From a virus (lineage: Duplodnaviria > Heunggongvirae > Uroviricota > Caudoviricetes): a stretch of 53,826 nucleotides of DNA. The stretch lies in the IMG/VR virus record IMGVR_UViG_2917855067_000007; one strand, 5' to 3'. Shown here piece by piece: positions 7,381-53,826 of this stretch; the stretch's first letter is position 1; the number at the start of each line of letters is the position of its first letter. Both the position numbers and the translations under genes were made by a program. The notes below the pieces were generated by a model. The model saw only the letters and a program-made list of their open reading frames with translations, was not told where the DNA came from and searched no databases.

Positions 7381-8292
7381 ATGAGAAGAACAGATCATCT
7401 ACGTGGAATTACGGCTTTTATTGCCACAGCCCAGCAGGGGAGTTTTACGGCAGCAGCGGAAAAGCTGGGACTGACAAAGTCGGCCGTAGGAAAAAGCGTC
7501 AGTCGCCTGGAAGACCGCCTCGGGCTGAAGCTTTTTCAACGTTCCACCCGGCGGTTGAGCCTGACGCCGGATGGTGAGCGTTTTCTTACCAGCTGCCAGA
7601 GCGCAATAGATATCCTGGAGCAGGCAGAGGCGGAACTGACGTCACATACCTGCCAGCCATCCGGGCGCCTGCGGGTAGATTTACCCGCAGCCTTCGGACG
7701 ACAGCGCATCCTTCCTATCCTGCTTGATATCACCCGACGCTACCCCGAACTGGCATTGACCGTTACGTTCAGCGAGCGGTTCGTTGACCTGATTGATGAG
7801 GGGCTCGATCTTGTCGTTCGCATTGGTGAGCTGTCAGACAGCAGCGGACTGGTTGCCAGAAGGTTGACAACCCAGAAGCTGGTGATCTGCGCCTCTCCAG
7901 ATTATCTGTTCAACCACGGAGAGCCTGTCAGTATCGATGACCTGAATCACCATCAGTGCGTTGTCGGCTTTCGCCGTAACCAGCCTGTTTCGTGGTTGCT
8001 GAAAGAGGGGGGTGGTCAAATCAGCCGCTTTGTCCCTCCGCCGACCCATGAGTTTGCCGACGGCGACGCAATGCTCGCAGCTACCCTGGCTGGAGGGGGA
8101 TTGTCCCAACTCCCCCTCTGGTTGGTGGGCAGATATCTCGACGAGGGTAAATTGCGGGAAGTGCTGCCCGGACACTCCGGCGGGGAGATGCCTATCAGCG
8201 CGCTGTGGCCAAAAAGCCGCCAGCTACTCCCCAAAATCCGCTATGTAGTGGATACCCTGGTCAGAGCTGCGGAAGACGGCCTGCTTGATTAA
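7381..8292 (+). CDS. LysR-family transcriptional regulator
   Basis: 303 aa; N-terminal HTH (ITAFIATAQQGSFTAAAEKLGLTKSAVGKSVSRLE) and LysR substrate-binding domain. Confidence 0.85.
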   Translation: MRRTDHLRGITAFIATAQQGSFTAAAEKLGLTKSAVGKSVSRLEDRLGLKLFQRSTRRLSLTPDGERFLTSCQSAIDILEQAEAELTSHTCQPSGRLRVDLPAAFGRQRILPILLDITRRYPELALTVTFSERFVDLIDEGLDLVVRIGELSDSSGLVARRLTTQKLVICASPDYLFNHGEPVSIDDLNHHQCVVGFRRNQPVSWLLKEGGGQISRFVPPPTHEFADGDAMLAATLAGGGLSQLPLWLVGRYLDEGKLREVLPGHSGGEMPISALWPKSRQLLPKIRYVVDTLVRAAEDGLLD

Positions 8293-9402
8293 TTATTCCC
8301 TGCTATCGGACCAGAAGGGGTAATCCGTATAGCCTTTTTCATCTCCGCCATACATCGTTGCCCGGTTAACGTCATTCAACGGCCAGTCGTTAACCATACG
8401 TTCCACAAGATCCGGGTTCGCAATGTAAGGCCGACCAAAACCAATCAGGTCAGCCTTCCCCTCCTGGAGATACGCTTCGGCACGCTGCTTATCAAAGCCA
8501 CCGGCAATAATCAAAGGCCCGGAATAGGCTGCACGAAATTTTTCAATAAACCCGGCAGGGATGGCCTGTTCTCCCAGTGTTTGCTGGTCGCTCAGATGAA
8601 CATACGAGAGAGAACGGGCGCTGAGTTTATCTGCAAGCATCAGCCAGGTTTCTTCCTCGCCATCAAAAGGATGCATGTCAAACAGACGCCCGAAAGGAGC
8701 CAGACGTATACCTGTTTTACCTGAGCCGATGGCCGTAGAGATTGCGTCAGTCACTTCCAGAACAAAGCGCAGGCGATTGTCAGTATCCGCGCCACCGTAC
8801 TCATCCTGACGAGTATTCAGCCCACCATTAATAAACTGCTCAAGCAGATAGCCATTGGCGGCGTGGATCTCAACACCATCAAAGCCCGCACGGACAGCAT
8901 TTTTAGCGGCCTGAACGTAATCCTGCACCACGGTTTTAATCTCGGGGATCGACAGCGCACGGGGTTCCGATACCGGAACCGGACCGGGTTTGCCGTTTTC
9001 GTCGCGTGCGTAACAGGTGGAATTATTGGCTTTAACCGCTACCGAACTAACGGGGGCCTGCCCATTAGCCTGCAAACTTGTGTGAGAAATTCGGCCGACG
9101 TGCCAAAGCTGAATATAAATTTTTCCGCCAGCGTCGTGCACCGCTTTTGTAACTTTTCCCCATCCCTGCACCTGAGCATCGCTGTAGATTCCTGGAGTGA
9201 AAAGATAACCCTGTCCCTGGACGGAGATTTGCGATCCCTCCGTAATAATGAGCCCTGCGGATGCGCGCTGCTGATAATATTTTGCGGTCAGCCCATCTGG
9301 AGTATCGCCTGATATTGCCCGTGAACGGGTCATTGGTGCCATAACGACGCGATTTGCCAAATCGGTGTCACCGGCCTGAAATGGGGTAAATAATTTTTCC
9401 AT
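8293..9402 (-). CDS. NADH:flavin oxidoreductase, Old Yellow Enzyme family (NemA-like alkene reductase)
   Basis: ATG at 9400-9402 with AAGGAGA upstream; OYE TIM-barrel motifs. Confidence 0.85.
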   Translation of the reverse strand: MEKLFTPFQAGDTDLANRVVMAPMTRSRAISGDTPDGLTAKYYQQRASAGLIITEGSQISVQGQGYLFTPGIYSDAQVQGWGKVTKAVHDAGGKIYIQLWHVGRISHTSLQANGQAPVSSVAVKANNSTCYARDENGKPGPVPVSEPRALSIPEIKTVVQDYVQAAKNAVRAGFDGVEIHAANGYLLEQFINGGLNTRQDEYGGADTDNRLRFVLEVTDAISTAIGSGKTGIRLAPFGRLFDMHPFDGEEETWLMLADKLSARSLSYVHLSDQQTLGEQAIPAGFIEKFRAAYSGPLIIAGGFDKQRAEAYLQEGKADLIGFGRPYIANPDLVERMVNDWPLNDVNRATMYGGDEKGYTDYPFWSDSRE

Positions 9403-35933: not shown

Positions 35934-36427
35934 TGTTGCCCCCACAAACAGACCTCACGCTCAATCTCACGACGAGTCATCAGGCCTTTCCATTGCTTAC
36001 CGCCAGCGTATGTCCAGCGACGTAGCTGGTCACATGCGCCCTTGATATCGCCCTGGTTTATTTTGCGAAGAAGAGTAGATGTTCTGAAATTGCCTGCGCC
36101 CACGTTATAGACGAACGAGTAAAGAGCGCCGCGCGTTGTTTCCGGTATATCGACTTTGATGTACGGGTTAATTTGTCTGGCGACAGTGGCAAGGTCTTTA
36201 TTCAGGAGGGCTTTGCATTCTGCTTCGGTATACGTTTTACCGAGCATAATGTCTTTTCCGGTGTGCCCGTAACATACAGTCCATACGCCAACGATATCTT
36301 TATATGGTATGTAGCTGACACCTTCCAGACCATCGTCACCACTCGGACCAGTGATGAGCACAGACGCTATGGCAACAGCCCCACCACCAATAGCAGCTGC
36401 AACAGCCTTGCGTAATGATGGCGACAT
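35930..36427 (-). CDS. R: SAR endolysin, phage-21 type
   Basis: 165 aa; N-terminal signal-anchor-release segment then lysozyme domain. Confidence 0.9.
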
Positions 36428-36642
36428 TATTCACCTCTCGCAGCCTTACGCTTATCTTCTTTAATCTTGAAATAAAGGTTTGTCAGGTACGTCAGCAGGC
36501 CAAATACCAGACTACCCAGCACACCTATTGCCGCCCACTGTGATGGCGTGACTTTATCGAGCAACTGTAAAAACCAGTAGCCAGCACTGCCTGCAGAGGT
36601 GCCATAGGCGACACCTGTTGTTAACTTATCCATTGATTTCAT
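36427..36642 (-). CDS. S: pinholin S, phage-21 type
   Basis: 71 aa [26 protein letters not shown]...; two TM segments; dual-start motif. Confidence 0.9.
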
Positions 36643-36864
36643 ATCCTCACCCCGATGTACACGGATGGTGCAATATGTTTGAAAAGATCGGAGTCTACGG
36701 GTTAGTTTTTACAGCAAACGTTGTTCTCAACGACGCTCAAAAAACAGAAAATTAAAAATAATGTGGTTAAATATTTTAAAAGAAAAACCATCTATTAAAT
36801 AATAATGCGGGATATATTTTTCTATTTAGTGTAATGTATACGGCCATTTATACAGGAAAAGCCT

Positions 36865-37035
36865 ATGTCAGAACGTAAAGACTCAAAATCACGCCGTAAT
36901 TATCTCGTAAAATGTTCCTGCCCACACTGTACCCAAGAATCAGAACACAGTTTTTCTAGAGTACAAAAAGGTGCCCTTTTGATCTGCCCTCATTGCAACA
37001 AAGTATTCCAAACAAATCTTAAAGCTGTTGCCTGA
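36865..37035 (+). CDS. small zinc-ribbon protein, 56 aa
   Basis: ATG with AGGAAAAG upstream; CxC...HC and CPHC pairs; convergent with late genes; not in ORF track. Confidence 0.35.
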   Translation: MSERKDSKSRRNYLVKCSCPHCTQESEHSFSRVQKGALLICPHCNKVFQTNLKAVA

Positions 37036-37100
37036 GTGTTTTGATTACTTACAAAGAGTTTTTATATTTTAATAATATATTTAAATCAGATAATAAAAAA

Positions 37101-37114
37101 CCCGCCTGCGCGGG
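37101..37114. terminator. bidirectional terminator between csp and the zinc-ribbon ORF
   Basis: hairpin cccgc-ctgc-gcggg flanked by A-run upstream and T-run downstream. Confidence 0.6.
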
Positions 37115-37316
37115 TTTGAGATTGTGGTGCTTTTTGTGGTAGTTACCCACTTACGCACTTTGTATTGCTATGCCAGCAGTTAGCTTCTACTGTAAAACTA
37201 TTCATGCAGCAAACCTGCACTTCACCACAAAATGGGATTCAATACCCACAACTCTATCTGCATCTCTACTCAGGCATCAGCCTTCTTCGTTATCGTATAC
37301 AGACAAGCTATGAATT

Positions 37317-37532
37317 TTAATCAGTAATAATGACATTTGCTGCTGCAGGACCTTTAGCACCACTCTCTACAGAGAAGGTAACCTTTTGGCCTTCAAATAA
37401 GGTTCGATAATTATCATTCTGAATTGCAGAAAAATGCACAAACACATCTTTACTACCATCAACAGGAGAAATAAAGCCAAAACCTTTATCAGCGTTAAAC
37501 CATTTTACTAAACCAGTCATTTTATTTGACAT
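37317..37532 (-). CDS. cold shock protein (CspA family)
   Basis: 71 aa [38 protein letters not shown]...; RNP motifs. Confidence 0.9.
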
Positions 37533-37774
37533 TCTACATTCCTTAACTTGAGCCTTTCGGCATAAATGATTTGTATAACAGAAACGACTTCGTACTTAAT
37601 TGGAGAGACTCAAAGAAGGAATAAGTGAATAACACCTGAAATGAGAACTGCTTTAGTAAACTACTTCGTATATCGTCTGTTCTTCAAACCGACGCAGCCA
37701 TTAACGCATAGTTGTACACTTGGAAGCAATGTTTATTTTAGACATCCAGCCACCTCCCCATTTAAAACACAAAA

Positions 37775-37792
37775 ACCCGCTCATTAGCGGGT
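37775..37792 (-). terminator. tR'-like terminator downstream of the putative late promoter
   Basis: hairpin acccgct-catt-agcgggt followed by UUUUUGUGUUUU on the minus strand. Confidence 0.6.
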
Positions 37793-37900
37793 TTTCTACT
37801 TTTTCTCAACACCGGACATACAAAGCCCATCGTTGAGAAAATCCTATCCATATTTTTTGAAAAATGCAAGCATCATGTCGATATCTTCGGCGAAAATTAT
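37793..37900 (-). promoter_or_regulatory. putative late promoter pR' and qut region
   Basis: minus-strand TTGCAT, 17 nt, TAGGAT just downstream of the Q stop; 10 nt inverted repeat TTTCTCAAC/GTTGAGAAA before the terminator. Confidence 0.3.
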
Positions 37901-38653
37901 TTATCTTGTCACCTTTCTCAACTGTGCTTCTGCATATGCTTCTTCCTGCCAGCACTTTGTAACCAGTTTATCAATAACATCAGCATACCCCTTGTACCAC
38001 TGATAATCCGTCAGGTCCGGTACCAGTTTCTGGACATGATGCCGCGCCAGTGTGGTTGGTAAACGGCTAAACCGGTTTCCATTGCAACGCCCACAAATCT
38101 TATAAACAGGCGTGCCATGAAGCCGGGTCCTTTTTTCATCCAGGACAATACCTTTACCCTTACACCCTCTGCACGCTGTGCTGACTTCTCCCTTACCATG
38201 ACAATGCTGACATAGTTCCTTCACCCACTCTTCCTTGATAACGGATTCCCCGCTTCTGGAATGTTTCACCACTTCGCGCAATACATTATGAAATCCCGTA
38301 CCAGCACAATGCTCACAGCGAGCCTTACTTGCCGCAGACCTGGAATAATCAGCAAAGGCAAAATTCACGAGGTAAGGAATAATCTGTAACCGTGTTTCTG
38401 CACTCAATTTATTCAATGTCGGGTTATCCAGTGCCATCGCGTAATTGAGCAGACCTTCAATCGCAAACTGAGGGTCCTGAACACCAACTTTTGCCAGGAA
38501 TAAGGCAAACCCAAGCGGTGCTTTCGACTGCACCATCCCCTGCGCAGCCATCACATCCGTAATTGATAAACCACCTGAGTCTGTCGCCGGTGCGTCATCG
38601 CTCAATTTTGGAGATTTTGGGGAGTAATATTTTGGTAAGGCCTCAAGATTCAT
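37901..38653 (-). CDS. Q-like late antiterminator
   Basis: 250 aa from ATG at 38651-38653; CxxC...CxxC zinc-finger pairs; sits between the nin genes and the lysis cassette; assignment mainly by position. Confidence 0.55.
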   Translation of the reverse strand: MNLEALPKYYSPKSPKLSDDAPATDSGGLSITDVMAAQGMVQSKAPLGFALFLAKVGVQDPQFAIEGLLNYAMALDNPTLNKLSAETRLQIIPYLVNFAFADYSRSAASKARCEHCAGTGFHNVLREVVKHSRSGESVIKEEWVKELCQHCHGKGEVSTACRGCKGKGIVLDEKRTRLHGTPVYKICGRCNGNRFSRLPTTLARHHVQKLVPDLTDYQWYKGYADVIDKLVTKCWQEEAYAEAQLRKVTR

Positions 38654-38869
38654 TCTCGCTCTCCATTTACACCAGCACGCCAATTGGCAGCAAAAAACAA
38701 TAAAACGGCATCAACCGATCGTTATCTCTGGCTTCATACAATTGTCTCTGCCAGTGTTTTGGCGTAATTCTTCAGTATCCGGTAATCGGTCAAAACAGAA
38801 CCGGGAAACGATATAAGCGCAGGCGCACCCAGCGGTAGCGAAGGAGTTCTGCCATATATGACTCACACA

Positions 38870-39519: not shown

Positions 39520-39682
39520 GATTCCTCCTTGCTGCCAGTCGCAACCATTTTTTATCAACCAGGCTGGCGGTATATCCGAGCAGTGTTGGTATTTCGGATG
39601 GCTTCAGCTCAGGCTTACGCTTACGACGATTTGGTACTCTGTAGATGTGTCCGTTCATGACACGAATAAGCGGTGTAGCCAT
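39513..39682 (-). CDS. ninE: NinE
   Basis: 56 aa [37 protein letters not shown]...; overlaps ybcN stop and ybcO start; not in ORF track. Confidence 0.7.
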
Positions 39683-40137
39683 TACGCCTCCTGCTTGTCG
39701 CGCAGTAGCTGGAACTCGCAGCTCTGCGGAATAGTCAGGTGGCAGCCAATATTCATCGCCCAGGCTTCAACCTTACACAGGAAGACATACATCTCTCCGG
39801 TATCAAGATCGGAGGTATGGCGTAACGACTGGATCGTAGTGATTTCACCGGTTACGACATCAACCAGGTCTTTGGTTTCATAACCGAGGTATGTGTGTTT
39901 GAGAGCATCTTTTACCCATGCTGCAGTAGCGAACGTTTTACCCCTGCTGATGAGGTATTCACTGATTTCGCTGTACCACATGTGGCTGAGTGCATTCTGG
40001 GAAAGACTGCGTTTCTCACGCCACGGTTTAAGCACCATGCGAAAGCATTTTCCGTCCTCCAGATAAGGCTGGATCTGCTGGCCGATAGCGGTGAAGTTGC
40101 CGCGATGTAATTTGATGCCGTCTTGTGGGAGGTTCAC
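39682..40137 (-). CDS. ybcN: YbcN-like protein, in the NinB position
   Basis: 151 aa [39 protein letters not shown]... matches DLP12 YbcN as recalled. Confidence 0.8.
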
Positions 40138-40327
40138 GCTTCACCTCCGCAGAGGTCAAACGTTGGATGCAAAGAACCACAGGTGCATTTCTGCATCTGT
40201 GACGGTAGAAGAGAGTTTGGATTGTATGCGCGCATAAACGTCCCCGTTTAGCGCAGAAGTCACCGGAGTTGTTCAAGCTCCGATGACTTTATTATTACGA
40301 ATTGATTTTACAAAATCAAAAGGTATG

Positions 40328-40780
40328 TTAGTGACGCGGGTCTGTTATTATGCGAGAAGGGTTTCCGTATAAAACAAGGACCTTACTTCCTTGAGTAAAT
40401 AACGGCTCTTTGCCTTGAACAATGGTCATTAAATTCCCATTCTCAGTTTCGACAACATATTCCATGCCTGTTTGTTTTGTTGCTGAAGATTCGATTGCTG
40501 CCCCGGCAATACCACCAATGACTGCACCACCAACGGCACCAACGATATTAGAACGAACTCCCCCACCAAGCGCAGAACCAGCGGTTGCCCCCACGGCAGC
40601 CCCAGCAGTCCCGCCTAACGCGGAAGTCCCACTGATATCAACCCCCCTGGCACTAATAACTGTACCAGCGATAGTTCGATTAACCATGCCCACAGAGCCA
40701 ACAGAATAACTATTTGGCGATATATTTTGTGCGCATCCAACCAACACTAAGAGTGGAGCAATTACGAATAATCGCTTCAT
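40328..40780 (-). CDS. SlyB/Pcp-like glycine-zipper outer membrane lipoprotein
   Basis: 150 aa; lipobox LLVLVGC; Gly/Ala zipper; C-terminal block resembling SlyB; low-GC DNA. Confidence 0.65.
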   Translation of the reverse strand: MKRLFVIAPLLVLVGCAQNISPNSYSVGSVGMVNRTIAGTVISARGVDISGTSALGGTAGAAVGATAGSALGGGVRSNIVGAVGGAVIGGIAGAAIESSATKQTGMEYVVETENGNLMTIVQGKEPLFTQGSKVLVLYGNPSRIITDPRH

Positions 40781-41337
40781 TTAGCTACCCTAACAGGAAA
40801 CATTGGACGAGAAAGATCAACACTTTCTAATGCTTGCAAGAACTGCGTTATGTTGTTTTGCACCGCGCGATTAACAGATTCGCGTGCTCGAACAATACCG
40901 TAGAATGCGTAACTGGCTGGAACAGTACCGGTAGACTCAATATCCTGCGTATATATAATATCACCATTCGCACGGTTGATTATTTCATACCTTGCAATTG
41001 CTTTAGTTGTCATTGAAACACCAAAAGCAGGAACGTCAAGAGCCAACACTTTAACATTTAAGCTAACCGTATTTGGTGAACTATCACGAAAAATAGTCAT
41101 TCGGTCGAGTGCTTCCTGCAAAGATTCACGCCAAATTGGAGTTATAGCCTCCATACCAGCAGTGATATCCCCTTTCTGCTCATCTGGACGAGCAAGTGAT
41201 ACCGTTAATGACTTAATTTCAGCATCTATTTTTTTCTGGCTAACTCCCACGTTAGGTGTTGAAAAATTCAATGGTGGCACACTAGCGCAACCTGTTAAAG
41301 AACCAATAATCATGGCTAATAATATTATCTTCTTCAT
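40777..41337 (-). CDS. lipoprotein of unknown function
   Basis: 186 aa; lipobox GSLTGC; stop overlaps the SlyB-like start; low-GC DNA. Confidence 0.5.
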   Translation of the reverse strand: MKKIILLAMIIGSLTGCASVPPLNFSTPNVGVSQKKIDAEIKSLTVSLARPDEQKGDITAGMEAITPIWRESLQEALDRMTIFRDSSPNTVSLNVKVLALDVPAFGVSMTTKAIARYEIINRANGDIIYTQDIESTGTVPASYAFYGIVRARESVNRAVQNNITQFLQALESVDLSRPMFPVRVAK

Positions 41338-41594
41338 AAATTTACCTTATTGTTATAACCAAAGGAATTATAAAGTAAAAAAAGTTCACTATCACTAGCC
41401 ATTAACGACATCAATTTCAGAGAAACATGGTACTCATTTCCACAAATTTGACACAAGTCATTTTCATCTACATATTCCATCATACTTGATGCATATGTTA
41501 TTGAAGCCTCTATCCTATCCGTTCATAATAGCAATAGTTACCCGGGTGATAGTACCTCTATGATTACTCGTCTTTCTGATTGATTGGATTAAAT

Positions 41595-41786
41595 ATGCGC
41601 GCCAAAATTTATCAACTTTCGTTATGGATATTTATTTCGTTTCTAGCGATCTATGCCTTTATTATCTATAAAGGTTCTTATATTGGAGTAGCATTGCATC
41701 AAATTGCTTGGATCATCATTATTGCCTCTGGCTTGATTGCTAGGCTAACTAAACCAAAGCAAAAACCAATTTCGTCCAATAATTAG
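41595..41786 (+). CDS. small 2-TM membrane protein
   Basis: 63 aa from ATG at 41595; two hydrophobic helices then a basic tail; divergent from the lipoprotein operon. Confidence 0.35.
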   Translation: MRAKIYQLSLWIFISFLAIYAFIIYKGSYIGVALHQIAWIIIIASGLIARLTKPKQKPISSNN

Positions 41787-41823
41787 ACATGTATTAAAAA
41801 AATGATATTTTTATGTACATAGT

Positions 41824-42117
41824 CTATTGAAAATTGCCGCGATAAAATGCCAACACCCGCTTCATCGCGGCACTCTGGCGACACTCCTTGAAAATCAGAT
41901 TCGTGCTCACCTTTCCTTCCCGTTCTTCCCTGGTAGCGAACCGGTAATACACCGTTCGCCAGACCTTACCATCAATGACTAAGATTCCTGTCCGCGCCAT
42001 TTTAGCCGCAGCCTGATTTATGCTGGTTACTGTTGCGCCTGTTACCGCAGCAACGTCCTGCGCACAGAAGCTCTTATGCGTCCCCAGGTAATGAATAATT
42101 GCTTCTTTTCCCGTCAT
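41824..42117 (-). CDS. ren: Ren
   Basis: 97 aa MTGKEAIIHYLGTHKSFCAQDVAAVTGATVTSINQAAAKMAR... matches lambda Ren. Confidence 0.85.
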   Translation of the reverse strand: MTGKEAIIHYLGTHKSFCAQDVAAVTGATVTSINQAAAKMARTGILVIDGKVWRTVYYRFATREEREGKVSTNLIFKECRQSAAMKRVLAFYRGNFQ

Positions 42118-42815
42118 ACACTGGCTCCTTTCAGTCCGAACTTAGCTTTGATTTCTGCGATCTTCGCCAGAGCCTGTGCACGATTTAGAGGTCTACCGCC
42201 CATGACAGGAAGTTGTTTTACTGGTTCAGGTATAGCCTCACCACGGTTAATTCGCGCGGTCATACAGGACAGTTCATCGGCAGCCTTGCGCCGTAATTCC
42301 GCGTCAGTCAACGCATTGGCCCGCATGTTCTGGTACAGATTGGTAACCAGCCAGTAGTGCGCGTTTGATTTCCACGGATAAGACTCTGCATCTGGATACA
42401 GTCCACGCTTCCGGCAATACTCGTAAACCATATCAACCAGCTCGCTGGCGTTTGGCAGTCCGGCAATAACGGATGCTTCTTCCCGGCACCAGGCGACAAA
42501 CTGCCCGGGTGATGGCAGGAATGGTCGATTCTGCCGACGGGCTACGCGCATTCCAGCGTTAACCTGTTCCATCGTGGTGATCCCATTTTCCCGGAAAGCC
42601 AGAACCCACTGGCGGCGGATTTCGTTCAGTTCATTCTGGTCCCGGTTAGCCAGGCTCGCCGGGAAAGTTGCCAGTAACTGGCTGAACACACCATTGATAA
42701 TCTGCGCTACCTGCTGTACCTGCGGCTTTTCGTCGTACTGTTCCGGCATGTTATTGGCGATCCGGCGCATCTGCTCACGGTCAAAATTAACCATCTGTGC
42801 GGCGATGTTTTTCAT
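42114..42815 (-). CDS. P: replication protein P (DnaB loader)
   Basis: 233 aa, lambda P-like. Confidence 0.95.
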   Translation of the reverse strand: MKNIAAQMVNFDREQMRRIANNMPEQYDEKPQVQQVAQIINGVFSQLLATFPASLANRDQNELNEIRRQWVLAFRENGITTMEQVNAGMRVARRQNRPFLPSPGQFVAWCREEASVIAGLPNASELVDMVYEYCRKRGLYPDAESYPWKSNAHYWLVTNLYQNMRANALTDAELRRKAADELSCMTARINRGEAIPEPVKQLPVMGGRPLNRAQALAKIAEIKAKFGLKGASV

Positions 42816-43741
42816 AGCTCCACCCCGTAAATCCAGTCAGTGTTCGTCAGGTCGAGTTTTGGCTTGCCGGCTGTCACGCCAGCCTGTTGCTTGTTTCGGT
42901 TGATTTCGAGCTGGGTCCACTTGTCGCGGAGTTTGGCCGGACTCAGCACGTTACCGGACCAGAAGTTGTCCTGGCATGCCCAGCGGAACAGCACGCACAT
43001 GTCGCGGTGGTTACGTCCGTCACGTTCACGCATCAGGCGGATATCGTTAGCCCACCCTGCAAAATTCGGTTTTCTGGCTGATGGCGCGATGGTCTTCACC
43101 ATGTCAAACATCCACTCTGCGGCGGTCAGGTCTTCTGCTGTCCCCCACTTGCTGCCGCTCTGAATTGCAGCATTCGGTTTCTCCACAGGAAGATCGTTTT
43201 CTGGCTGGTCAGAGGATTCGCCAGAATTCTCGGACGAAAAAGGTTTTATATTGTCTTTTGTTAGTTTGTCTTTTGTGTTTACCTGATTCGGGTAAACGCC
43301 TTTACCTGATTTAGGTAAACTTTTCTTACCTGATTCAGGTAAATTTACCTCTTTCAGGTAAACTTTATTTTTCTTACCTGATTCGGGTAATGTTGACCAT
43401 TCACTGACCACATTATTGATGCCGATATTCCGCCCGCTCTGAATAAAAATCCCACGCTTTACCAGAACACTTTTTGCAGCAGAACACTTGTGCGGCAATA
43501 TCCCGGTCAACTCGGAAAGTTGCTCGTTGCTCACCCAATCCAGTTTTTTATTAAAGCCATATGTTTTGCGCATGACAGCCAGGAAGACCAGAAGCTGGTG
43601 CTGTGTTAATCCGGCCAGCATCACAGCTTCCAGCAACTCATTTGCAATGCGCGTATAACCATCATCGAGATCTGCCACGCGCGGCTCCTTTTGTGCCACA
43701 TCCGGCACTGGAAAATTGAATATCTCAGCAGTGTTTGCCAT
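42812..43741 (-). CDS. O: replication initiator O
   Basis: ATG at 43739-43741 with GGGAGG; N-terminal DNA-binding domain, iterons inside the gene, C-terminal P-interaction domain. Confidence 0.9.
   Translation of the reverse strand: MANTAEIFNFPVPDVAQKEPRVADLDDGYTRIANELLEAVMLAGLTQHQLLVFLAVMRKTYGFNKKLDWVSNEQLSELTGILPHKCSAAKSVLVKRGIFIQSGRNIGINNVVSEWSTLPESGKKNKVYLKEVNLPESGKKSLPKSGKGVYPNQVNTKDKLTKDNIKPFSSENSGESSDQPENDLPVEKPNAAIQSGSKWGTAEDLTAAEWMFDMVKTIAPSARKPNFAGWANDIRLMRERDGRNHRDMCVLFRWACQDNFWSGNVLSPAKLRDKWTQLEINRNKQQAGVTAGKPKLDLTNTDWIYGVEL
43281..43390. repeat. replication origin iterons (five ~18 bp repeats) within O
   Basis: repeats of tacctgattcaggtaaa-type sequence with adjacent AT-rich tract at 43240-43280. 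Confidence 0.8.
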
Positions 43742-43827
43742 AATTCCTCCCGCAATGAGTGCGTTACGATTTGCACCTGAAAGTCGGTTCTGTTCCAGCA
43801 GACCGGCTTTCGCCATTTCTGAACCTG

Positions 43828-44373
43828 TCATATCGCCCCCAGCATGGTGGTGACCATCGCCATCAATGGACCAGCCAGATCCGGGTCCACACGAAACATC
43901 GACACAATGCCTTCACTCATCTCCTTCAGTTTCTGGTGGCGTGGCGCGTTGAGAATGACAGCCTGTTTTGCTTCACTGAGTTCCTTTTCCATTTCAGCCA
44001 GCCGAGCCATGAAGCTATCCTGCTTAACCAGGTAACCGCGATATTCCAGCGGTAGTACCGCCAGAATTGCCGGGGTCAGTTCACGCACGTTATTTCGGTA
44101 TTTTTCAGAATCGAATTTGTTATCGAGGAAGCGGAACAGCTTCTGGCGTGCACGGCTGACATCATCAGGGAAATCGATGGTGCCGCCGCCCTGCTCCCGA
44201 TACTCATTCACAATGAGTGCGGCAACAACATCCTGATTATCTGCAGCCGACCAGGCGCGAACGGCATCACGGATTTTTTCGTGGCCTGGCACCTGTTTTG
44301 TTTGAGAACGATTTATCACCGCAGTCGGGCTAAATCCGCTAGTCTGTTGGTATGTAAGTGGTTGCATAGTCAT
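43828..44373 (-). CDS. regulatory protein in the cII position
   Basis: 181 aa between cro-like gene and O; no lambda CII similarity; family not identified. Confidence 0.35.
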   Translation of the reverse strand: MTMQPLTYQQTSGFSPTAVINRSQTKQVPGHEKIRDAVRAWSAADNQDVVAALIVNEYREQGGGTIDFPDDVSRARQKLFRFLDNKFDSEKYRNNVRELTPAILAVLPLEYRGYLVKQDSFMARLAEMEKELSEAKQAVILNAPRHQKLKEMSEGIVSMFRVDPDLAGPLMAMVTTMLGAI

Positions 44374-51006: not shown

Positions 51007-51328
51007 GGCCTGTCAGTTTCTCAAGATATCCAGACCTACCGCTACCAACTGGATACGAACAGGCCGCCTACAGGCAACACGCAAAGACCCCACTAAACCA
51101 AAATCTCCTTACCTCACAACGCGACAAGCCTGCATTGCGGCGCTTCAGTCTCCGCTGCATACTATCAAGGTGAGCGCGGGTGATGGCATAACAGAGGAAA
51201 GAAAATGTCACTCTTCCGCAGAAGTGAAATATGGTACGCCAGTTTCACATTGCCGAACGGTAAAAGATTTAAACAGTCTCTTGGAACAAAGGACAAAAGG
51301 CAGGCAACAGAGCTCCATGACAAGCTAA
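50978..51328 (+). CDS. xis: excisionase-like DNA-binding protein
   Basis: ATG at 50978 with AGAGG upstream; [29 protein letters not shown]; overlaps the int start, so the real 3' end is uncertain. Confidence 0.5.
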
Positions 51329-52368
51329 AGGCTGAAGCATGGCGGGTCAGCAAACTTGGTGAAATACCTGATATGACGTTCGAGGAAGCGTGTGTCAGGT
51401 GGCTTGAAGAGAAAGCACATAAAAAATCACTGGACGATGACAAAAGCCGGATCGGATTCTGGCTTCAACATTTCGCAGGGATGCAACTAAGAGACATTAC
51501 TGAATCAAAAATTTATTCAGCAATTCAGAAAATGACGAACCGGCGTCATGAGGAAAACTGGAAACTCAGGGCAGAAGCATGCAGAAAAAAAGGGAAACCT
51601 GTTCCAGAATACACGCCAAAACCAGCGTCCGTTGCAACGAAGGCAACGCATCTTTCATTTATAAAGGCCCTGCTAAGAGCCGCAGAGCGTGAATGGAAAA
51701 TGCTGGATAAGGCACCAATTATTAAAGTGCCTCAACCAAAGAATAAACGGATCCGCTGGCTGGAGCCTCATGAAGCACAAAGGCTGATTGATGAATGTCC
51801 GGAGCCATTAAAGTCTGTTGTTGAATTTGCACTGGCAACAGGTTTAAGACGCTCGAACATCATCAACCTTGAATGGCAACAAATAGACATGCAGCGCCGG
51901 GTGGCATGGATAAACCCGGAAGAGAGTAAATCAAACCGCGCAATTGGCGTTGCGCTGAATGATACTGCATGTCGCGTATTGAAAAAACAAATAGGGAATC
52001 ATCACCGTTGGGTATTTGTGTATAAGGAAAGCTGTACCAAACCAGACGGAACGAAAGCGCCAACAGTAAGGAAGATGCGGTATGACGCAAACACAGCCTG
52101 GAAAGCGGCGCTGAGACGAGCTGGTATTGATGATTTCAGATTTCACGACTTGAGACACACCTGGGCAAGTTGGCTGGTTCAAGCCGGAGTCCCGTTGTCA
52201 GTGTTACAGGAAATGGGTGGCTGGGAGTCTATCGAAATGGTTCGTCGATATGCTCACCTCGCGCCTAATCACCTTACCGAACACGCACGGCAAATAGACT
52301 CGATTCTGAACCCATCGGTCCCAAATTTGTCCCAGTCAAAAAATAAGGAAGGTACTAATGATGTGTAA
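51205..52368 (+). CDS. int: tyrosine integrase of the lambdoid prophage
   Basis: 387 aa; C-terminal catalytic R...[10 protein letters not shown]...Y; ends 15 bp from the tRNA 3' end. Confidence 0.9.
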
Positions 52369-52379
52369 CTTATTGATTT

Positions 52380-52428
52380 AAATGGTGCCGATAATAGGAG
52401 TCGAACCTACGACCTTCGCATTACGAAT
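52380..52428. repeat. attR core within thrW
   Basis: 49 bp identical to 6396-6444. Confidence 0.85.
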
Positions 52429-52458
52429 GCGCTGCTCTACCAACTGAGCTATATCGGC
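52383..52458 (-). tRNA. thrW: tRNA-Thr (anticodon CGU)
   Basis: reverse complement gccgatatagctcagttggtagagcagcgcattcgtaatgcgaaggtcgtaggttcgactcctattatcggcacca; cloverleaf with CGT anticodon and CCA end. Confidence 0.9.
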
Positions 52459-52572
52459 CCTGAAAGAACATGTTCACGAACGTGAATCACGGTGGACAAG
52501 GTTAAAACTAACCGGGCGATGCGTCAATGGCCTTGTGAATCAAATGGCTACTTTTGCATCACCCGATTTTAT

Positions 52573-53826
52573 TTACGCACGAATGGTGTAATCACCAATG
52601 CCGATCCACTTGTAGGTGGTCAGTGCTTCCAGCCCCATTGGGCCGCGCGCGTGCAGTTTTTGCGTGCTTACGGCGACTTCTGCACCCAGACCAAACTGGC
52701 CGCCGTCGGTAAAACGCGTAGAGGCGTTAACGTAAACAGCGGAGGAATCCACTTCGTTAACAAAACGCTGGGCGTTGCGCATATCGCGGGTCAGGATCGC
52801 ATCGGAGTGTTGCGTGCCATGCTCGCGAATATGGGCAATGGCGTCGTCCAGATCGCTGACGATTTTGACGTTCAAATCTAATGACAGAAACTCATCGTCA
52901 TACTCTTCGGCTTTAACAGCCACCACCTTCGCAGGGCCTGGCTGCAACTGTGCCATTGCGGCAGCATCTGCGTGTAATGTCACGCTGCTTTCCGCCATTT
53001 GTTTGCTTAATGCGGGCAGGAAGCTATCGGCGAAGTTTTTATTCACCAGCAACGTTTCTACCGTATTACATGTGCTCGGACGCTGAGTTTTCGCGTTGAC
53101 GATTACTTTCAGGGCTTCAGCGATCTCTGCACTTTCATCAACGTAAATATGGCATACGCCTATACCGCCTGTGATCACCGGGATTGTCGACTGTTCGCGG
53201 CATAGCTTATGCAGACCAGCGCCGCCGCGCGGGATCAGCATGTCGATGTATTTATCCATACGCAGCATTTCACTGACCAACGCACGGTCAGGATTATCAA
53301 TTGCCTGTACTGCACCTGCCGGTAAACCGCAGGATTTCAGGGCGTCCTGAATCACCGCCACCGTTGCAGCGTTAGTGCGACAGGTTTCTTTGCCGCCACG
53401 CAGGATCACCGCGTTACCCGTTTTCAGGCATAGCGAAGCAACATCGACCGTCACGTTCGGGCGCGCTTCATAAATCACGCCAATCACCCCCAGCGGCACG
53501 CGACGACGCTCCAGACGCAGGCCGCTGTCCAGCATGCCGCCATCGATTATCTGCCCCACCGGATCGGCGAGGTTACACACATGGCGCACATCATCGGCAA
53601 TGCCTTTCAGCCGTGCGGGCGTCAGTGCCAGACGGTCAAGCATCGCTTCGCTGAGGCCATTAGCACGCGCGTCAGCAACATCCTGGGCGTTAGCGTTGAG
53701 GATGCTTTCGCTTTGTGCTTCCAGTTCATCGGCGATTTTTTCCAGCACGCGATTTTTTTCGCGGCTGGAGAGTTGCGCTAATTTATACGAGGCTTGCTTC
53801 GCGGCAATGCCCATTTGTTCCAGCAT
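52573..53826 (-). CDS. proA: gamma-glutamyl phosphate reductase
   Basis: 417 aa [40 protein letters not shown]... matches E. coli ProA; start is at the window edge. Confidence 0.95.

Follow-up and report, generated by a model that had tools for sequence, protein, structure and literature searches.

In Enterobacterales, slyB is a monocistronic, PhoPQ-regulated lipoprotein gene that adjoins slyA, and among the lipoproteins encoded by phages, Cor and Llp act on one receptor, FhuA. Recent preprints report that SlyB rings in E. coli enclose nanodomains of lipid and outer-membrane proteins when the packing of lipopolysaccharide (LPS) is disturbed, and that they protect the barrier; the SlyB paralogues described of late in Yersinia copy SlyB closely and lack a partner. 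It is not long since glycine-zipper lipoproteins of the SlyB type came to be seen as organisers of the outer membrane that are induced by stress, and the published work that we found treats them as single chromosomal genes. Here we describe a pair of lipoprotein genes, A and B, of which the second encodes a SlyB-like protein, in a lambda/DLP12-like prophage carried on the minus strand of a 53,826-nucleotide (nt) stretch of viral DNA (IMG/VR record IMGVR_UViG_2917855067_000007; this whole stretch is called the window below). We consider it moderately probable that the block containing the pair came by horizontal transfer, as a cassette (moron) of two genes, into the cargo slot between ren and ybcN in this prophage, and that it encodes outer-membrane lipoproteins that would alter or stabilise the outer membrane of the lysogen.

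The pair had been singled out in an earlier note made from the sequence alone, and the coordinates, the lipoboxes and the stop/start overlap given there for the two open reading frames (ORFs), of 186 and 150 amino acids (aa), are all correct, as is its reading of the base composition. Its parts are the following, where a slash marks the position before the lipidated cysteine.

40325..41823, minus strand: whole insert (moron), bounded by the lambdoid backbone on the ybcN side and by the stop codon of ren
40777..41337, minus strand: gene A, 186-aa predicted outer-membrane lipoprotein with an LptE/PqiC/YajG-type alpha/beta fold; lipobox LTG/C, Cys17, Ala at +2
About 41218-41289: tether of protein A (residues 17-40)
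40328..40780, minus strand: gene B, 150-aa SlyB-family glycine-zipper lipoprotein; lipobox LVG/C (LLVLVG/C), Cys16; its start overlaps the gene A stop (ATGA)
About 40676-40735: tether of protein B (residues 16-35)

Neither ORF can be attributed to chance, each having hundreds of homologues in nearly all of which the lipobox is retained. Judged by sequence and architecture, protein B, which begins MKRLFVIAPLLVLVG/CAQ, is a predicted member of the SlyB family and forms a separate subfamily with another genomic setting. The note had called it SlyB-like, and it is indeed a full-length SlyB homologue: a phmmer search of the PDB matched its residues 2-149 to residues 3-155 of SlyB (7ojf, E 1.6e-14), and BLASTP against E. 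coli K-12 SlyB gave 33% identity over the full length. Cys16 is invariant in 30 homologues. The AlphaFold2 (AF2) model (predicted local distance difference test, pLDDT, 71) consists of a beta-hairpin, a helical hairpin at residues 55-101 and C-terminal beta strands; helices are predicted at 55-71 and 75-101, and small-residue repeats of the form G/A/S-xxx-G/A/S run from residue 46 to 90.

Protein A, whose N-terminus reads MKKIILLAMIIGSLTG/CAS, is accepted by no Pfam or NCBIfam family. The earlier note had described it as unknown, and this can now be made more precise, for it has an LptE/PqiC-type fold. Its AF2 model is confident (pLDDT 83, predicted TM-score 0.77) and shows a beta-alpha-beta-beta-beta-alpha sandwich, that is, the two-layer alpha/beta sandwich behind a lipoprotein anchor that is typical of LptE, PqiC (DUF330), PelC and CsgG. 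The best structural matches are DUF330/PqiC, LptE, PelC, CsgG and TraT, which are outer-membrane lipoproteins partnering envelope machines, many of them ring-forming. Protein A shares the LptE/PqiC/YajG-type fold without belonging to any defined family. RefSeq currently labels it a 'YajG family lipoprotein' (YajG is E. coli b0434; Pfam PF03923, COG3056), and hhalign of protein A against YajG yielded a probability of 84% and an E-value of 7.6e-6 over 121 columns, signal peptide included. With E-values up to 0.1 allowed, protein A matched neither PF03923 nor an NCBIfam model, and its top 150 profile matches include no clear relative of YajG, the best similarity there being marginal.

An older name, 'UDP-N-acetylglucosamine acyltransferase', has spread through NCBI and UniRef for the 186-aa family (P0001, P0003, P0021, P0041 and others) without a supporting domain. 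The LpxA-type acyltransferase that this name implies was rejected, as it has no Pfam or NCBIfam support and protein A is a lipoprotein. Among the PHROGs, the pair matches only families 12521 and 13877, both of unknown function, protein B being the one that matches phrog_13877.

The two genes form a unit. A pattern-limited scan of 185,579 species representatives, one genome per species, returned 71 species loci that encode gene A; they belong to Enterobacterales (Klebsiella oxytoca, Serratia, Edaphovirga), Xanthomonadales, Alphaproteobacteria and many Burkholderiales, and also to a few Verrucomicrobia, Acidobacteria and Desulfobulbaceae. A gene B homologue follows gene A directly on the same strand in about 64 of the 71, and about 57 of these 64 paired loci retain both lipoboxes. 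As in the window, where the gene A stop and the gene B start overlap as ATGA, the two reading frames are closely joined elsewhere: the Cys codon of B lies 39-59 nt past the A stop in nearly all 64 paired loci (78 nt in one), and the signal peptide of B therefore begins at or over the stop of A. The identity matrices of A and B correlate with r = 0.86, a value reached in none of 2000 Mantel permutations, from which it follows that the two genes are inherited and transferred together. When all neighbours of the pair were clustered, no third conserved neighbour emerged; the 147 flanking ORFs fall into 128 different Pfam families, none of which occurs more than four times, and on individual contigs the flanks vary with the genome, from housekeeping genes to toxin-antitoxin pairs, recombinases or integrases. 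The pair is self-contained, and its two genes co-evolve as a module.

For patchily distributed lipoproteins both families are unusually conserved, with a mean column identity of 68% for A and 65% for B. The most conserved segments are the tethers right after the lipidated cysteine, in which 14 of 24 columns (A, residues 17-40) and 13 of 20 columns (B, residues 16-35) are at least 90% conserved, and both of which AF2 leaves unstructured. Since lipoprotein tethers usually vary, conservation at this position suggests that the two segments may be docking peptides.

Two cases in the survey call for a remark of their own. In one lineage (L083-L085), a third glycine-zipper lipoprotein gene (Rick_17kDa_Anti, 150 aa; 8078-8530 on the minus strand in L083) lies convergent just past the pair. 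A Stenotrophomonas-like copy of the pair also appears in the assembly of a Gram-positive actinomycete (L034; JBJNRH010000001.1, labelled Nocardiopsis yanglingensis), and this copy is probably assembly contamination.

Within the prophage, the pair occupies the slot between ren and ybcN. The other features of the insert and of its surroundings are these.

41338..41823, no strand: AT-rich spacer from ren to gene A, 32% GC; accompanies the pair in E. coli only
About 41346, minus strand: AAGG ribosome-binding site upstream of gene A
41367..41395, minus strand: sigma-70 promoter-like site, GTGATA-17-TATAAT, 10/12 consensus, about 30 nt upstream of gene A
41595..41786, plus strand: divergent hydrophobic ORF, 63 aa from ATG, or 68 aa from TTG at 41580
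41824..42117, minus strand: ren, which bounds the slot upstream; named Ren or DUF977 in the records that match, weak DUF977 match
39682..40137, minus strand: ybcN/ninB, downstream boundary gene of the slot; NF007281 E 9.5e-84, NinB Pfam match
42114-42815: P
42812-43831: O
51205-52368, plus strand: integrase-sized ORF at the end of the prophage
52383-52458, minus strand: tRNA-Thr(cgt), adjoining the integrase-sized ORF
52573-53826, minus strand: proA, near tRNA-Thr(cgt)

The insert measures 1.5 kb with a GC content of 0.398 (40325-41823), against 0.497 and 0.511 in its flanks; the value for the low-GC block as first delimited (40328-41800) is 0.402. Its position between ren and ybcN was also rightly read: in other lambdoid phages the shared backbone runs to about 40324 and the insert is missing, and in phage PhiR34_1 (L089) the same slot is filled by ybcL-ybcM instead. 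As extra DNA of deviant composition that is absent in related phages, the insert is a moron in the usual sense of the word. The nearest chromosomal relative, in K. oxytoca, is 71% identical in DNA, and the similarity stops exactly at the limits of the two coding sequences (41337-40347). GC at third codon positions is 0.30 and 0.35 in the lipoprotein genes as against 0.53-0.60 in ren, ybcN, O and P, which, together with the confinement of the Klebsiella similarity to the two coding sequences, argues for a foreign origin of the pair.

The order of genes around the slot is that of a lambdoid phage: a cI-like gene, cro, a cII-like gene, O, P and ren precede the insert, and ybcN/ninB, ninE, ybcO, rusA and a Q-like gene follow it, before the lysis and structural genes. 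The integrase-sized ORF, tRNA-Thr(cgt) and proA together (51205-53826) place the prophage at the thrW/proA site. A gene for a CspA-like cold-shock protein (71 aa, 37317-37532, minus strand) lies in a further block of 35-39% GC at about 36700-37900, flanked by the Q-like antiterminator gene (37901-38683) and the holin gene (36427-36642); this block looks like a second moron of the same prophage. An Rfam search of the AT-rich spacer gave a single, spurious match to a long non-coding RNA, located inside ren.

Of 5426 complete E. coli genomes, 280 have the block, at least 99% identical and always in the chromosome; 274 of the 280 copies are full length, and one is interrupted by IS5. The E. coli prophages that carry it are lambdoid and differ in integration site (ybhC in L002, proA/thrW in the window) and in their other modules. 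The L002 prophage is degraded, with a truncated ren and without O and P, and carries iss and a porin gene besides the pair. Among isolated phages, only PhiR30_1, with E. coli C as its recorded host, has the block (1 of 50,697 genomes), and a search of 72,556 plasmids returned a single match, weak and partial, with 25.8% identity.

The closest protein relatives are phage-borne as well, at other genome positions. Pairs with 87%, 77% and 73% identity are found in lambda-like tail modules, where they have the tape-measure gene on one side and gpM on the other. In IMG/VR, relatives of gene A are present on 38 viral contigs; 21 of them hold E. coli-type copies (99-100%), and on the 17 divergent ones, to which this count is confined, B stands beside A in 13. 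On five contigs (L118, L120-122 and L126, with 61-66% GC) and in one genome (L027), the pair lies 42-190 nt downstream of, and in the same orientation as, a CI-type repressor gene (HTH_3 plus Peptidase_S24). The repressors of L120 and L121 are identical, so the CI-adjacent cases amount to about four distinct phages. Elsewhere the pair comes after the large terminase gene (L119) or after a helix-turn-helix (HTH) regulator gene (L124). These different positions, three or more, in different temperate phages indicate that the pair entered temperate phages several times.

As to expression, gene A has a ribosome-binding site and a promoter-like site in front of it, and no clear terminator was found inside the insert. 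The pair points the same way as the early operon of pR, from which read-through would therefore transcribe it during lytic growth. For the lysogen, the adjacency to cI in other phages suggests, by analogy, that the pair may be expressed there too. A 49-aa ORF (41334-41483, minus strand), starting MMEYVDENDLCQICGNEYH..., overlaps the gene A start codon by ATGA and spans the promoter-like site; it matched no family and is probably not a gene.

The mechanism that we propose starts from the signal peptides. Both lipoproteins would be exported by Sec, lipidated at the conserved cysteine and sorted to the outer membrane by Lol; an outer-membrane location is predicted for both from their sequences and the '+2 rule', because the residue at +2 is Ala in each, not Asp. 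By homology with SlyB, the glycine-zipper hairpin of protein B would enter the outer membrane, and B would assemble there into oligomeric rings around nanodomains of lipid or outer-membrane proteins. The simplest view of protein A, given its translational coupling and co-evolution with B, is that it serves as a dedicated partner, whose most likely role is either to dock with the B ring, from above or from below, or to tie the ring to a universal component of the envelope; protein A may thus be a cap or adaptor for the ring, or its link to LPS, the Lpt machine or BAM, for example. The pair would then alter or stabilise the outer membrane of the lysogen. The expected benefit is tolerance of envelope stress (antimicrobial peptides, chelators, serum), and a possible second effect is a generic, receptor-independent drop in access to outer-membrane proteins. 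Ring formation, the contact between A and B, expression in the lysogen and the phenotype are all steps that we infer.

Several observations weigh against this reading. The identity of protein B to SlyB is only 33%, and the Pfam glycine-zipper models score it below their cut-offs (PF05433, 21.1 bits against 24.2; PF13488, 16.9 against 25); several homologues of protein B do carry PF13488 or PF05433. Contact between A and B we infer from linkage alone, and no Rosetta-stone fusion of A with a SlyB-like domain was found in the top 150 representatives, in which the longer gene A relatives have extensions unrelated to SlyB. Gene A occurs without a detectable gene B at some loci (L053, L057 (Photorhabdus), L059 (Budvicia), L068, L072 and L127-L130), and neither a glycine-rich ORF nor a divergent glycine-zipper gene was found downstream at these A-only loci. 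The promoter-like sites in the region number 6, where shuffled sequences lead one to expect 5.7. Co-transcription with the repressor is not certain in the CI-adjacent phages: between the CI-type repressor gene and gene A of L120, a short GC hairpin (GGCGCC-GACA-GGCGCT, then TTGTCT; 7956-7985) may attenuate read-through from cI. Most copies of the pair, finally, stand in ordinary chromosomal contexts, so a benefit specific to phages is not required. As a side observation, the DNA downstream of gene A in Photorhabdus is repetitive and yields VHCRTGSLE repeats in translation.

A first alternative is that the pair is a neutral or selfish passenger, an accessory envelope module lodged in lambdoid recombination hot spots without benefit to phage or lysogen. 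We regard this as unlikely. The element is certainly rare, being present in 5% of complete E. coli genomes, at 71 species loci, in one of 50,697 isolated phages and, as a weak partial match, on one plasmid; its E. coli copies, all at least 99% identical, fit a single recent acquisition, and one of them has been interrupted by IS5. A passenger would nevertheless hardly be under the strong purifying selection that the column identities of 65-68% across phyla imply, nor would one expect the lipoboxes and the translational coupling to be retained, nearly all E. coli copies to be full length, or unrelated phages to hold the pair at different positions, the immunity region included.

Receptor-specific superinfection exclusion of the Cor/Llp type, in which one lipoprotein or both would attach, on the periplasmic face, to a single receptor (FhuA, LamB or OmpC, for example) and keep related phages from adsorbing or delivering their DNA, is in our estimate distinctly unlikely. 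It would suit a pair of predicted outer-membrane lipoproteins that is phage-borne and that several prophages have next to repressor genes, others within tail modules. The identity of the pair is, however, 46-85% over a range of hosts with different phage receptors (Gamma-, Beta- and Alphaproteobacteria, and even Verrucomicrobia and Acidobacteria), and most of its copies are outside prophages; we therefore favour a general effect on the outer membrane over the blocking of a single receptor. Kinship with the known phage lipoproteins Cor, Llp and Bor, which the earlier note had named as precedents, was not borne out by the family searches, nor by a search of viral structures (BFVD), whose matches were weak (best TM-score 0.36, a phage-encoded CsgG ranking first) and included none named Cor, Llp or Bor. 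Known anti-phage defence was rejected on the lack of any PADLOC match. Of the proposal that the pair is lysogenic-conversion or exclusion cargo, what holds is a foreign moron with two lipoproteins that recurs, as the same pair, in unrelated temperate phages; exclusion through a specific receptor is argued against by the chromosomal copies in diverse bacteria. The sequence data support the pair as prophage cargo that would act on the outer membrane.

Protection against the envelope weapons of competitors (type VI effectors, colicins, tailocins), with the pair as an immunity-like or shielding module, appears very unlikely. No effector or toxin is recurrently linked to the pair among the 147 flanking ORFs, and neither protein matches a known immunity family; what speaks for this alternative is that a patchy, mobile and highly conserved module is typical of defence or immunity cargo, that one locus lies near PAAR/Tle1 genes, and that encapsulation of outer-membrane proteins of the SlyB type, judging from a SlyB preprint, could hinder the receptors of colicins or tailocins.

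A three-gene unit, in which the divergent 63-aa two-segment membrane protein would be a real regulator, toxin or partner of the lipoproteins, has an equally small probability in our judgement. The ORF had been counted as part of the block from the start, and it is present: it is intact in the listed E. coli copies, encodes two hydrophobic stretches with basic ends and has promoter-like sites upstream on the plus strand. Among 5.8 billion proteins, its relatives make up five clusters, four of them 91-98% identical and one an 86%-identical fragment; the two that bear a source name are both from E. coli. RefSeq annotates nothing at this position in the listed records for the 280 spacer-bearing genomes, and the ORF is absent at every non-E. 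coli locus with the pair. The plus strand of the spacer is T-rich, which favours hydrophobic codons, and an ORF of at least 63 aa arises in 15.5% of dinucleotide-preserving shuffles of this 32%-GC sequence. Having only near-identical copies, no annotation, no counterpart elsewhere and a length within chance, the divergent ORF is best treated as a doubtful gene outside the conserved module.

Two further candidates can be dismissed briefly. A spanin-like pair (Rz/Rz1) does not fit, as each of the two proteins is a lipoprotein, the lysis cassette does not include their genes and the homologues are found mostly in DNA other than that of phages; a virion or tail component, as the tape-measure/gpM position might suggest, is contradicted by the lipoprotein signal peptides of both proteins.

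What is new here is a partnered, mobile SlyB subfamily that has been captured by phages. In this subfamily the SlyB-type protein has an obligatory partner, and the pair moves horizontally and has been taken up by phages several times; our full-text search of the literature found no paper on the pair, its accessions, PhiR30_1 or phage-borne SlyB paralogues. If the pair changes barrier function or receptor access, it would represent a new class of lysogenic conversion, present in about 5% of complete E. coli genomes, including many clinical isolates. On the same condition, it would also offer a genetic handle on the control of SlyB-type ring assembly and correct the widespread misannotation as 'UDP-N-acetylglucosamine acyltransferase'.

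Among described systems, SlyB (E. coli b1641; PDB 7ojf/7ojg) is the closest to protein B, with which it shares the order of parts: lipobox, N-terminal beta segment, glycine-rich helical hairpin and C-terminal beta domain. The members of the protein B subfamily are 60-80% identical to each other and about 33% identical to SlyB, and they differ from it in their conserved N-terminal tether. Three residues of SlyB bind phospholipid. Unlike slyB, gene B always follows a partner gene to which it is coupled; in the window it comes second in an operon of two genes within a prophage, away from slyA. For protein A, YajG is comparable in length and lipoprotein nature, but gene A lacks the ampG neighbour; YajG itself has, to our knowledge, no known function. 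LptE and the DUF330/PqiC-type proteins (XCC0632, PDB 2iqi; PqiC, 8q2c) have a sequence identity of 6-15% to protein A, and the partner genes of the LptE, PqiC, PelC and CsgG systems (lptD, pqiAB/mce, pelB and csgEF, respectively) are not found beside gene A, whose sole conserved neighbour is the SlyB-like gene.

Bor/Iss, Cor and Llp resemble the pair in being small lipoproteins of temperate or T5-like phages that change the host surface, but they are single genes, and no Pfam or NCBIfam family of theirs was matched. In lambda, the site downstream of cI holds the exclusion genes rexA and rexB, which are expressed in the lysogen. This cI-rexA-rexB arrangement is a positional analogue of the CI-adjacent pairs on the five contigs and in the one genome; the RexA and RexB proteins are unrelated to the pair, and in the window the pair belongs to the nin region, not the immunity region.

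A further likeness, one of structure, is to TraT (PDB 9e2v), the surface-exclusion and serum-resistance lipoprotein of the F plasmid. TraT is a single, plasmid-borne polypeptide, whereas the pair is prophage-borne and divides the helical membrane part and the alpha/beta part between two proteins, B and A respectively. We would tentatively go one step further, to a possibility that we rate as rather doubtful: the pair may be a previously unrecognised two-component outer-membrane system, in which a SlyB-like ring former is joined by an LptE/PqiC-fold partner that makes ring assembly constitutive or targeted. Captured repeatedly by temperate phages of very different hosts (behind cI, in tail modules, in the nin region), such a system might give lysogens a receptor-independent, 'armoured' outer membrane that excludes superinfecting phages, tailocins or colicins and resists host antimicrobials, and it would then be a split-gene functional analogue of plasmid TraT.

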